Source of the DNA: a phage
DNA length: 64,000 nt
NCBI GenBank assembly: GCA_026110335.1
Contig: GCA_026110335.1_3055.1
Strand: one strand, 5' to 3'
Shown: positions 3,353 through 10,933 of the stretch, piece by piece
How the letters are laid out: each line of letters begins with the position of its first letter
Numbering within the stretch: the stretch's first letter is position 1
Position numbers and translations under genes: made by a program
The notes under the pieces: generated by a model
The model's database searches: none
What the model saw: the letters and a program-made list of their open reading frames with translations, nothing else
Told to the model about the DNA's origin: nothing

Positions 3353-4944
<1,592 letters not shown>

Positions 4945-4971
4945 AATAAAATGGGCCTTGCGGCCCACTCC

Positions 4972-5474
4972 TTAAAAGTATTTTTTAAAACTCATCATAA
5001 CTTTATCATCAACATCATTATCAATCTGTGCAACAAGATAAGATGACAGTTCTACTTCTTGCGGCGCGGATTGAACATTATCAGAATTAAGATATTCACG
5101 AATCCAAGGATATGGATGTTTAACCGGAGCATCGGTAATTGGGCATGGAAGACCGCACTGTTTCATACGAGATACAGTTAAGTAATCAATAAAGCTCCAC
5201 ATGCTATTTGTATTTAATCCAGGAACATCGCCATCTTTAAATAAATGAACTGCCCAATCTTTTTCTTGACGGTTAACTTCCATGAAAATATCAACTGCTT
5301 CTTGTTCACACTCTTGAGCAATTTTAACCCATTCATCACCATCAGTACCGGATTGAAGCTGACGAATAATATATTGAGTGCCTTTAAGGTGAAGCTGCTC
5401 ATCACGTGCAATGAACTTCATAATCTTGGCATTACCTTCCATGATTTCCATGTTCTTATGGAAGTTAAAGGTAC
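4972..5474 (-). CDS. nrdB: ribonucleotide reductase small subunit, exon 2
   Basis: Encodes ...TFNFHKNMEIMEGNAKIMKFIARDEQLH... to C-terminus; aligns to recalled class Ia R2 (E. coli NrdB FACSFAFAERELMEGNAKI); junction inferred. Confidence 0.85.
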
Positions 5475-6565
5475 CGTTATGTTCGATTGAGCTCGCTAAT
5501 TCTCAACCCGTTCTCTTATGAACTGCTACATATTACTATGCAGACCAGACTATATCACAATCCCAGAGGGATTCTCCCCATTTCGAGTCGCTTGACCCTA
5601 CGTCCGAAGACTAGTCGTTGAACCTTGCTTTGCAATTGTCGCCGTGCCATCGTTTATATGTTGATGGTGATAAATCTTTCTTATCACAATATGGACAATT
5701 CAATTGAATTCTATTTGGATTTAATTTACATCTGTCATTATGTTTTAGATAAAATCCAGGACCTTTACCAATGTGACCGCAGAAATCACATGTGATTTCT
5801 TTTTGTGCAGGATGGGTCCCGTTCTTAACCATTTCTAATGTTTTTGCTGATGTTCTTTTCTTATGGTCTTCTGATAAGAAATGATGTGAACCGTCATTTA
5901 CCCGTTTTGATTGAGTTTCTGACTGCATTTTACCACCGCAAAATACATGAGTACCTTCTTTTATAGCTGCAATATTGCGTTCTTTAACTTTTGCAATATG
6001 CTCAGCTTGTTGAAAATTATGTATACCTAATGCAACTCTATTTAAATTAGATTTACGCTGCATTTCACCATCTAAAAGATGAAATGTACCATTTTCTATC
6101 TTAGATTTAATAGAGGCAATATTTTTAGCTCGTACTTCAGGGATGTTAAAAACCTGGATTTCTCTAGATTTTGCGGCTTTAGAAGCTAATTCAGAAATTT
6201 CTTCAGGAGAATATTTCATTCTAAGCTTTATAGCATGACAAGCCTGGTAATCTTTTTGAGCTAAATGTATATCATAATGTTCCTGTATAGAAAGGCACAT
6301 CAAATTATCTAAATCATTATTTTCACGGTTACCGTCTTTATGATGGATTTCGTATGTTCTTCCATCAGAATCTTTAGGTATAGGTCCGTTAGCATCTATC
6401 CAAATTTTTCTATAGTTCAATTGTGCATCCTCTTAAAAGTATAATCATATTTATATTATACTAATTAAAGGTGCAAGCAAAACCTTGGCTGCTAGTTTTC
6501 CTATAAAGGACTTTCCAGCAATTAAAGGAGTTTTCGATAAACGTTACCGTTTAAAGGCGCATTTT
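5475..6565 (-). mobile_element. group I self-splicing intron in nrdB carrying a homing endonuclease ORF
   Basis: Interrupts conserved R2 motif FYVSFA|C; 5' exon ends in U, intron ends in G; about 1091 nt; boundaries inferred from protein continuity. Confidence 0.75.
5611..6420 (-). CDS. HNH homing endonuclease, I-TevIII-like, apparently full length (269 aa)
   Basis: Intron-embedded ORF with HNH-type motif (EIHHKDGNRENNDLDNLMCLSIQEHYDIH) and C-terminal Cys/His-rich region. Confidence 0.75.
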   Translation of the reverse strand: MNYRKIWIDANGPIPKDSDGRTYEIHHKDGNRENNDLDNLMCLSIQEHYDIHLAQKDYQACHAIKLRMKYSPEEISELASKAAKSREIQVFNIPEVRAKNIASIKSKIENGTFHLLDGEMQRKSNLNRVALGIHNFQQAEHIAKVKERNIAAIKEGTHVFCGGKMQSETQSKRVNDGSHHFLSEDHKKRTSAKTLEMVKNGTHPAQKEITCDFCGHIGKGPGFYLKHNDRCKLNPNRIQLNCPYCDKKDLSPSTYKRWHGDNCKARFND

Positions 6566-7202
6566 ACGCAAAAGATACATAAAAACGAATAGCTTCCAAT
6601 GCGTTGATTACATGCAGGCAGAGGTAAAGAGAACGCATTAATTCATATTTGGCAGTTTTAACACCTTCACTGAACTCATGGTATTCTTCTAAAGCATTTT
6701 GGTATTTACGTGTTTTCTCAATAACGTCATCATAATAACGTCCAATGGATTCAGCACGTTTCATAATAGCTTCATCTAATACAATCTCATCAAATACCTT
6801 TGACGGATCAGTATAAAGATTTCGCATGATATGAGTATATGAACGGCTGTGAATAGTTTCACTAAAAGTCCATGTAGCAACCCATGTATCAAGACTTGGG
6901 TCTGAAATTAATGACATAAGTACAGCAGACGGTGCACGTCCCTGAATGCTATCTAGAAGTGATTGATACTTCAAGTTATTAGTAAAAATATCTTGCTGAT
7001 ATTGAGGAAGCTTGTTAAATTGTGCAGAATCCATCATTAAGTTTACTTCTTCAGGACGCCAGAAAAATGATAATTGCTTTTCGGTTAAATCTTCAAAAAC
7101 TTTATGACGTTGAATATCATAACGCGCAATACCAAGACCTGAACCAAAAAACATAGGTTCTTTTAAAACATCAACTGGATTTGTATTAAAAACTGTGCTC
7201 AT
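6566..7202 (-). CDS. nrdB: ribonucleotide reductase small subunit, exon 1
   Basis: MSTVFNTNPVDVL... through ...EAIRFYVSFA; ORF then reads into intron to a stop. Confidence 0.85.
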
Positions 7203-7253
7203 AAATTTTCCACTTAGTTAATAGTTGGTGACTCGTCCATGAGTCAAATTATA

Positions 7254-10072: not shown

Positions 10073-10933
10073 TTACACCGCCATTTTTCCTTTCAAGACA
10101 CCGTGGGACTGATAATCTTTGAGAACGAAATCTTTAGGCCTGAGTTTAAGAACATATTCCAATTGTTCTTTAGTAGAAAGATAACGGAATTTATAAGGCA
10201 ATCCGCCTATTACCAGTTCACAAAGCTCTTTAGGTTCACGACGCAAAATTTCTTTACATTGTTCGACATGATTCATATAGATATGAGTATTACCACCGGA
10301 AAATATCAAATCTCCTGGAATAAGATTACACATCTTAGCTACAATATGAACGAACGCAGCATATGATGCAATGTTGAATGGCAAGCCCAAGAACACGTCA
10401 ACACTTCTTTGATACCACTGCAAATCCAAATAGCCATTACGCACATTAAACTGATAGAACATATGACAAGGCGGTAATGACATATATTTAAGTTCAGCTG
10501 GATTCCATGCAGAAACAATTTGACGTCTATCATTTGGTAGTTTTTTAATACGATCAACAACTTCTATAATTTGGTCTACACCGCCAAAATCACGCCATTG
10601 TTTTCCATAAATTGGACCAAGTTCACCACTATGATATCCTAAATCTTTTGCTTGATTTTCGTAATTTTCATCCCAGACTGTTTTGCCTTGAATTAATGAA
10701 TTGTGTTGAATTAATCGTAAATCATTGACATTTGTGCTTCCTGATAAAAACCATATTAGCTCAGCAATGCAAGCTTTCCAGGCGAGCTTCTTAGTTGTTA
10801 CCGCAGGAAAACCTTTAGTTAAATCCCAGCGTAATTTAGTACCGAACAAAGCAATTGTTCCTGTGCCTGTTCGGTCATCGGTTTCATAGCCATTTTCAAA
10901 AATGTCTTTAATTAAATCTTGGTATTGTTTCAT
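10073..10933 (-). CDS. td: thymidylate synthase, uninterrupted (no intron)
   Basis: 286 aa continuous ORF with ThyA active-site region (LPPCH) and C-terminal MAV; T4 td is split by an intron, this one is not. Confidence 0.9.

Follow-up and report, generated by a model that had tools for sequence, protein, structure and literature searches.

A full-length RB3-type nrdB group I intron encoding the homing endonuclease I-TevIII in a T4-like phage

What interrupts the nrdB gene of this phage, could the interruption be removed from the RNA, and is it a mobile element? The window (i.e. the whole stretch of 64,000 nucleotides that was analysed) comes from a phage of the genus Tequatrovirus (T4-like), and its first 25 kb are ~95% identical to many such genomes, with no genome closer than that. 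On the minus strand an open reading frame (ORF) at 7202-6564 has the C-terminal sequence AIRFYVSFA followed by a TAA stop codon; a second NrdB-like ORF occupies 5451-4972, and the nrdB frame resumes at 5474. A sequence-only reading of the DNA had taken nrdB to be split inside FYVSFA|C by about 1.09 kb, placing the splice junctions from protein continuity. It described the insert as a group I intron containing a 269-aa ORF with an HNH-like motif, apparently a full-length I-TevIII-like endonuclease, and regarded the T4 copy as a deletion remnant. Alignment to the T4 and RB3 introns and folding into P1-P9 elements were proposed, and the lack of a group I core or an ORF truncated relative to characterised I-TevIII was held to speak against the assignment.

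Excision of the 1091 nt from 6565 to 5475 generates GCG T|GT ACC and an in-frame coding sequence of 1140 nt, which is the length of the intronless Dhakavirus nrdB coding sequence. The spliced NrdB has 379 aa, contains FYVSFACTFNFHKNMEIMEGNAK and matches Pfam Ribonuc_red_sm (PF00268) with E = 3.5e-38; it is a complete class Ia ribonucleotide reductase small subunit. The intron is in phase 1, between the first and second bases of the Cys codon in FYVSFA|C. A synthetic 210-nt junction of exon 1 and exon 2 gave an uninterrupted alignment, at 97.6% identity, with the nrdB genes of many intronless phages. Because this alignment is contiguous and the coding sequence is in frame, the junctions deduced from protein continuity are exact. 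The coordinates of the features are collected in Table 1.

Table 1. Features of the interrupted nrdB locus, in window coordinates.
Feature	Position	Strand	Remarks
nrdB exon 1	6566..7202	minus	212 codons and first base of the Cys codon
nrdB exon 2	4972..5474	minus	last two bases of the Cys codon, 166 codons, stop codon
Group I intron, 1091 nt	5475..6565	minus	first base directly after exon U6566; last base G5475
Block deleted in T4, 491 nt	5866..6356	minus	encodes the HNH motif and first repeats; from alignment with T4
I-TevIII ORF, 269 aa	5611..6420	minus	UUG (TTG) start 6420-6418, UAG stop 5613-5611
Shine-Dalgarno-sequestering hairpin	6424..6475	minus	minimum free energy -14.9 kcal/mol, z = -4.26
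P1	6557..6569	minus	exon GCGU (6569-6566) with internal guide GCGC (6560-6557), 4 bp
P2 hairpin	6538..6553	minus	UAAACG/CGUUUA, GUAA loop; three compensatory double-change pairs
P3 5′ strand, CUCCUU	6525..6530	minus	with GGGGAG 5579-5574; from Rfam alignment of the ORF-less ortholog
P4 and P5	6490..6520	minus	P4 6520-6515 with 6495-6490; P5 6510-6507 with 6502-6499
P6 and P6a 5′ strands	6477..6489	minus	P6 GCC 6489-6487; P6a GUUUUGC 6483-6477
3′ catalytic core	5548..5633	minus	P6a/P6 3′ strands to P7 3′ strand; from Rfam RF00028 alignments
P7	5616-5612 and 5552-5548	minus	5′ strand GACUA; 3′ strand UAGUC
P7.1	5611-5602	minus	GUC-UUCG-GAC
P7.2	5598-5585	minus	GGGUC-AAGC-GACUC; U-A to C-G compensatory change
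P3 3′ strand and P8	5579-5574 and 5573-5559	minus	J8/7 after P8
Peripheral 3′ hairpins	5485..5543	minus	P9 5543-5526, P9.1 5523-5510, P9.2 5508-5485

A megablast search with the nrdB region returned 728 phage records, the top matches being annotated as 'nrdB' and 'I-TevIII'. The closest characterised relative is the nrdB intron of RB3 (GenBank X59078, NC_025419), which lies at the same point of the same gene, is of equal length and is identical to the insert at 1085 of 1091 positions (99.5%). All six differences fall within the ORF, so that the ribozyme segments are identical to those of RB3, the ORF-stripped core being the same letter for letter. As judged by this degree of identity to a characterised element, the insert is not a chance pattern.

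The nrdB intron of T4 (598 nt) has the insertion site, the ribozyme and the part coding for the C-terminal zinc fingers in common with the window. Outside a block of 491 nt the two introns are identical at 591 of 598 positions, with two single-base indels in addition. Loss of this block (window 6356-5866) has deprived T4 of the HNH motif and altered the reading frame, leaving an I-TevIII remnant of just 97 aa. The T4 deletion is flanked by the imperfect repeats GAAGAaCATA and GAAGAcCATA. The T4 intron is therefore the window intron minus the 491-nt block, a deletion remnant as had been supposed, and Eddy and Gold (1991), as cited in PMC2988022, described the T4 form as a deletion mutant of the wild form. 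The full-length RB3-type form is likewise in the literature already (Eddy and Gold 1991, as cited there; Robbins et al. 2007, PMC1865063). The insert is almost certainly the nrdB group I intron of T4-like phages in its full-length RB3-type form, which hosts I-TevIII.

The ribozyme is not immediately apparent from a search of the window. At gathering thresholds (50 bits for RF00028, Group I catalytic intron) Rfam gave no match in the whole 64 kb, because the ORF is an insertion of 785 nt that separates the halves of the core; the negative search reflects the method and does not count against an intron. A permissive scan gave a match to RF00028 of 33.9 bits (threshold 50; E = 1.5e-6), with an alignment that is convincing in its 3′ half alone, over the P6 3′ strand, J6/7, P7, P3′, P8, J8/7 and P9. 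The 5′ half was forced onto ORF sequence and was discarded. The nrdB intron of the Escherichia phage DCP80 (Gaprivervirus), of 309 nt, provides an ORF-less ortholog with the same insertion site and the same helices. It is ~90-94% identical to the window-type intron over core segments, the whole ORF having been deleted between two ACAATTG repeats (positions 142-148 and 927-933 of the window intron). It scores 74.1 bits against RF00028 (gathering 50; E = 6.4e-19), and the core segments of the window align to it without rearrangement.

Identical end points were used to strip the ORF from four introns (window, T4, a20 and HY03), which were then aligned with that of DCP80. A P1-P9.2 model was drawn from the Rfam alignment and by inspection. 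Standard pairs fill 99.8% of its cells in five distinct orthologs, a percentage that is biased upward since the model was drawn partly from the window sequence. Eight base pairs show compensatory double changes among the five orthologs, three in P2, two in P9.2 and one each in P5 (UA/AU/GC), P7.2 and P9, with DCP80 carrying compensatory changes in P2, P5, P7.2 and P9.2. The six slid controls gave no double changes, and eight was not reached in any of 500 shuffles. RNAalifold, run independently, recovered P1, P2, P4, P5, P6, P6a, P7.1, P7.2, P9, P9.1 and P9.2 and the same eight double-change pairs. The P3/P7 pseudoknot is beyond what this program can draw. It also placed local hairpins at alignment columns 218-230 and 232-252 that conflict with P3, P8 and P7; the Rfam-supported pseudoknotted core was preferred to these.

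Helices P3, P4, P6, P7 and P8 are invariant among the five orthologs, so that their support comes from the Rfam model and from conservation, not from covariation. The J6/7 and J8/7 strings (GUUCAACGACUA and GAUAUAGUCU) together with P3, P4-P5, P6 and P8 align to the Rfam consensus, and standard pairs suffice to draw every core helix from P3 to P8 and the P3/P7 pseudoknot. The P1 helix that cmscan drew on DCP80 was mismatched and was replaced by a P1 of 4 bp containing a U.G pair. In the window the splice-site U6566 forms this wobble with G6560, and both the wobble and the terminal G5475 are invariant in the five orthologs. P6 and P6a pair across the ORF, with GGU 5624-5622 and GCAAAGC 5633-5627, respectively, so that the I-TevIII ORF is looped out of P6a. 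Note that the P6a/P6 3′ strands, J6/7 and the P7 5′ strand double as coding sequence, for the last eight codons of the ORF and the stop codon. The P7.1 and P7.2 hairpins define subgroup IA (Michel and Westhof 1990). Both are present here between the P7 5′ and P3 3′ strands, and the ribozyme of the window is thus of IA type. The proposed P1-P9 folding can therefore be drawn through to P9.2 with eight covarying pairs, and a group I core is present, with P3-P8, the U.G pair of P1 and the terminal G all in place.

The nrdB RNA would be expected to fold into this IA-type P1-P9 core, P7.1 and P7.2 included, with the ORF held out from P6a. Homology with the T4 intron predicts an attack by exogenous guanosine after U6566, followed by one of the freed exon 1 after G5475. 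GCGU would be joined to GUACC, restoring the Cys codon of FYVSFAC and with it the 379-aa ribonucleotide reductase small subunit. The T4 nrdB intron has been described as self-splicing (PMC2790892), and from the 591/598 identity with T4 and the RB3-identical core we infer that the intron of the window phage probably splices as well. The alternative would be an insert that no longer splices, with nrdB a disrupted pseudogene and the phage dependent on the host reductase. The sub-threshold Rfam score of the window by itself would fit this, and the adjoining denA gene is frameshifted, so that gene decay does occur in the region. Yet the ribozyme is base-for-base that of RB3 and differs from T4 at 7 of 598 positions, several of the T4 differences (in P8 and P9) keep standard pairs, and both exons are intact and in frame. 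We consider loss of splicing very improbable.

The ORF within the intron has the layout of I-TevIII: an N-terminal HNH domain, five repeats of ~22 aa, each terminating in a G-x-H motif, and two zinc fingers of the form CX2CX12-13HX3C. Its product matches Pfam HNH_3 with 48.7 bits (cutoff 24.8) and PHROG 12324 ('intron-like DNA endonuclease') end to end (1-269 of 269, E = 7e-193), and both zinc-finger motifs are present, at residues 211 and 242. It is identical to RB3 I-TevIII at 266 of 269 residues, the differences being Y23 for D, V90 for I and M120 for I. Mutation of eight residues of the RB3 enzyme abolished or reduced activity (Robbins et al. 2007, PMC1865063): H26A, H27A, N39A and H48A abolished cleavage, and C211, C214, C242 and C245 of the two fingers are required for zinc and DNA binding. 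All eight are kept in the window (numbering from the UUG). A search of PDB sequences with I-TevIII found no solved relative. Pfam also reported a match to FlgM at residues 74-114 (26.3 bits, cutoff 25) that is most likely spurious, arising from a helical low-complexity stretch in the nuclease. There is no truncation, all 269 residues are aligned, and by its sequence the product is full-length I-TevIII and not merely I-TevIII-like. Its activity in the window phage would be expected from near-identity to the RB3 enzyme.

The UUG start is preceded by the Shine-Dalgarno sequence AAGAGGA at 6434-6428. A T4 late-promoter box, TATAAATA, is found at 6455-6448, between the arms of the hairpin that sequesters the Shine-Dalgarno sequence. 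RNA beginning downstream of the promoter box has an unstructured leader. In a read-through pre-mRNA the Shine-Dalgarno sequence would be buried in the stable hairpin; late transcripts, on the other hand, would start past its 5′ arm because the promoter box is inside the hairpin, and should then be translatable. Promoter, Shine-Dalgarno sequence, hairpin and start codon are all identical to those of RB3. Control by a late promoter and hairpin has been published for the T4 intron endonucleases (PMC2988022); the motifs and fold are evident here at the level of sequence, and the regulatory function is likely to be the same.

A comparable arrangement is found in the other introns of T4. The td intron with I-TevI and the nrdD intron with I-TevII are likewise phage group I introns in nucleotide-metabolism genes, in which the endonuclease ORF is looped out of the ribozyme and is subject to late-promoter and hairpin control. 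I-TevI and I-TevII cleave at a distance from the insertion site, as does I-TevIII (PMC2988022). The host genes differ, however, and I-TevI and I-TevII are GIY-YIG enzymes (I-TevI being monomeric) whereas I-TevIII is a dimeric HNH enzyme. The 3′ core of the window intron has detectable similarity at the DNA level to td-intron regions of T4-like phages. The td gene of the window phage itself is uninterrupted, with no intron.

Is the endonuclease still in use? The intron might be a stagnant copy, the endonuclease being inactive or unexpressed and the element persisting by vertical descent or hitch-hiking only. In keeping with that, V90 and M120 are unique to the window among the six full-length copies compared, and nrdB has no mobE beside it to drive mobility in trans; the T4 nrdB intron relies on MobE for trans-homing (PMC2790892). 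The I90V and I120M changes are nevertheless conservative and fall in neither the HNH motif nor the zinc fingers, the required residues of I-TevIII are all retained, and the elements of expression are the same as those of RB3. Moreover an unbroken frame of 269 codons would be unlikely to last unselected, and introns shortened by deletion to 309 and 598 nt do occur elsewhere. The third change, D23Y, stands beside the catalytic histidines and was considered as a mark of inactivity; this was rejected, as Y23 is also present in TadeuszReichstein, a20, BCPEco_001 and WilhelmHis, with D23 found only in RB3 among the six copies. A stagnant copy thus appears improbable, and an intact I-TevIII intron remains the preferred reading.

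The 5′ part of the intron is present in 127 of the 728 phage records that have the nrdB region. The full-length form (i.e. with the block that is absent from T4) is found in 85 phage records, and has already been annotated in dozens of GenBank phage genomes. Inserts of other sizes also occur, of ~420 nt in Salmonella phage SG1 and ~590 nt in phage F26. The window intron shares 98-100% identity with its counterparts in Mosigvirus a20 and Dhakavirus Bp7, against 65-85% for the flanking exons. Such uniformity of the intron in three genera, where the exons have diverged, points to horizontal transfer by homing in the recent past. The process may be envisaged as follows. When an intronless phage infects the same cell, its uninterrupted nrdB would be bound by I-TevIII dimers via the zinc-finger region, as described in the literature for the near-identical protein. 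Repair from the intron-bearing genome would then copy the intron together with some flanking exon. That an intact copy indicates an active mobile intron, as had been suggested for this locus, is already known of the RB3-type element and provides no new lead.

We note a foreign-looking segment of exon 1 in which the window phage departs from RB3. Over ~100-120 nt (~6631-6750) the sequence is 83-100% identical per 30-nt bin to intronless Dhakaviruses, reaching 97-100% at 6661-6720. Identity with RB3 and WilhelmHis is 50-63% over 6631-6720 and 80-90% in 6721-6750, and exon 1 outside the patch is mostly 87-100% identical to WilhelmHis. The patch starts ~50 bp upstream of the I-TevIII cut site, and the rest of nrdB is of Tequatrovirus type. 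It could conceivably be a scar left when the endonuclease initiated recombination between phages belonging to different genera, an origin that we regard as doubtful, and mosaic recombination of the ordinary kind, in which I-TevIII plays no part, accounts for it just as well. If it were such a scar, the genome would be a natural recombinant in which the break-repair tracts around a phage homing site are directly readable, and in which an intact I-TevIII intron is maintained in the absence of a neighbouring mobE.

An intron that is far closer to those of distant phages than its flanks are, next to a foreign-looking patch in exon 1, might also be produced by the stitching of an intron-bearing fragment of another phage into the assembly. 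Homing, however, is expected to leave just such a contrast in identity between intron and flanks. The 85 independent records share this arrangement down to identical junctions, and the flanks on either side are colinear with Tequatrovirus genomes, so that an artefact of this kind is scarcely credible.

Two features of the neighbouring genes were observed. No mobE is present between nrdA and nrdB in the window, unlike RB3, T4 and HY03. Directly downstream of nrdB, denA is longer by one 4-nt unit within an AAGG/GGAA run (4677-4692), an insertion that is absent from 499 of 499 phage records. The resulting apparent frameshift cuts the protein to 91 aa, and deletion of the four bases restores 136 aa.

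The element, its endonuclease, the cleavage chemistry, regulation and mobility have been published since 1991 and 2007, so the locus is an already known element, adding nothing new beyond one more occurrence. It is nonetheless one that is easily misannotated. Gene callers often report it as two nrdB fragments and a 'hypothetical protein', or start I-TevIII at an internal ATG, cutting off the HNH motif. The correct features are a joined nrdB coding sequence (7202-6566 with 5474-4972), an intron at 6565-5475 and I-TevIII starting from the UUG at 6420. The locus is also a further example of how homing-endonuclease genes spread and decay in cycles: the full-length intron of the type seen here coexists in related phages with the deletion derivatives of 598 nt (T4) and 309 nt (DCP80).

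The gap between nrdA and nrdB in the window is too short to hold the homing endonuclease gene mobE, whereas in RB3, T4 and HY03 mobE lies between these two genes. The intron encoding intact I-TevIII therefore occurs without that neighbour. In T4, a defective copy of the intron is mobilised in trans by mobE. The td gene is unbroken in the window; T4 has a td intron with I-TevI, and the window phage has the nrdB intron but neither of those.

Positions of the features discussed, in window coordinates unless another record is named
Feature	Position	Strand	Details
Mosaic patch	about 6631-6750		nrdB exon 1, 65-185 nt upstream of intron
nrdA-nrdB intergenic region	7203-7253		51 nt
denA (endonuclease II, GIY-YIG)	ATG at 4944; premature stop 4669-4671	minus	extra 4-nt unit within 4677-4692
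ORF-less nrdB intron	2001-2309 of PQ671644.1 (Escherichia phage DCP80)		309 nt
td (thymidylate synthase)	10073-10933	minus	single ORF, 286 aa

Pattern matching shows five repeats arranged in tandem, of about 21-24 aa apiece, at residues 94-207 of I-TevIII (window about 6141-5800), after the HNH domain and ahead of the zinc fingers. Each of them closes with a G-[TIS]-[FH]-x motif. All five are present in the window, whereas the T4 deletion takes out repeats 1-3 and part of repeat 4. The intron ORF is not annotated uniformly. In the records of the BASEL phages TadeuszReichstein and WilhelmHis it begins at an internal ATG (Met41, giving a CDS of 690 nt), so that the catalytic residues H26, H27 and N39 are missing from the annotated product. 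Other records call the nrdB exons as two genes, or label the endonuclease 'hypothetical protein'. These differences are inconsistencies of annotation, not of biology.

Phage DCP80 carries a version of the same intron that lacks the endonuclease ORF. The ends of its deletion fall on ACAATTG, a direct repeat of 7 nt with one copy on each side of the ORF in the window (6424-6418 and 5639-5633). The endonuclease gene thus appears to have been lost precisely. The DCP80 record has a run of N just upstream.

Downstream of nrdB, an AAGG/GGAA run in denA holds one surplus 4-nt unit that shifts the frame, so that the product ends at 91 aa; removal of four bases from the run restores the usual 136-aa DenA. 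The insertion was found in none of the 499 phage records matching the stretch, and it could be either a genuine denA-null allele or a sequencing error. Between the nrdB stop and the denA start (4945-4966, minus strand) a GGGCC-GCAA-GGCCC hairpin is followed by a T run. This resembles an intrinsic terminator, and is also conserved in RB3.

The exon 1 patch is 83-100% identical per 30-nt bin to the intronless Dhakavirus phages NC-G and dhabil (97-100% over 6661-6720), but over 6631-6720 just 50-63% identical to the RB3, WilhelmHis and T4 types, from which it also differs by nine codons in length. Over most of exon 1 outside the patch, identity to WilhelmHis is 87-100%. The patch might be a recombination scar close to the I-TevIII cut site, or it might reflect ordinary mosaicism.

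The introns of a20 (Mosigvirus) and Bp7 (Dhakavirus) are 98-100% identical to that of the window, whereas their nrdA, nrdB and denA flanks are only 65-85% identical, with the switch occurring within about 100 nt of either intron end. This pattern of identity indicates that the nrdB intron has spread across genera, with short co-conversion tracts.
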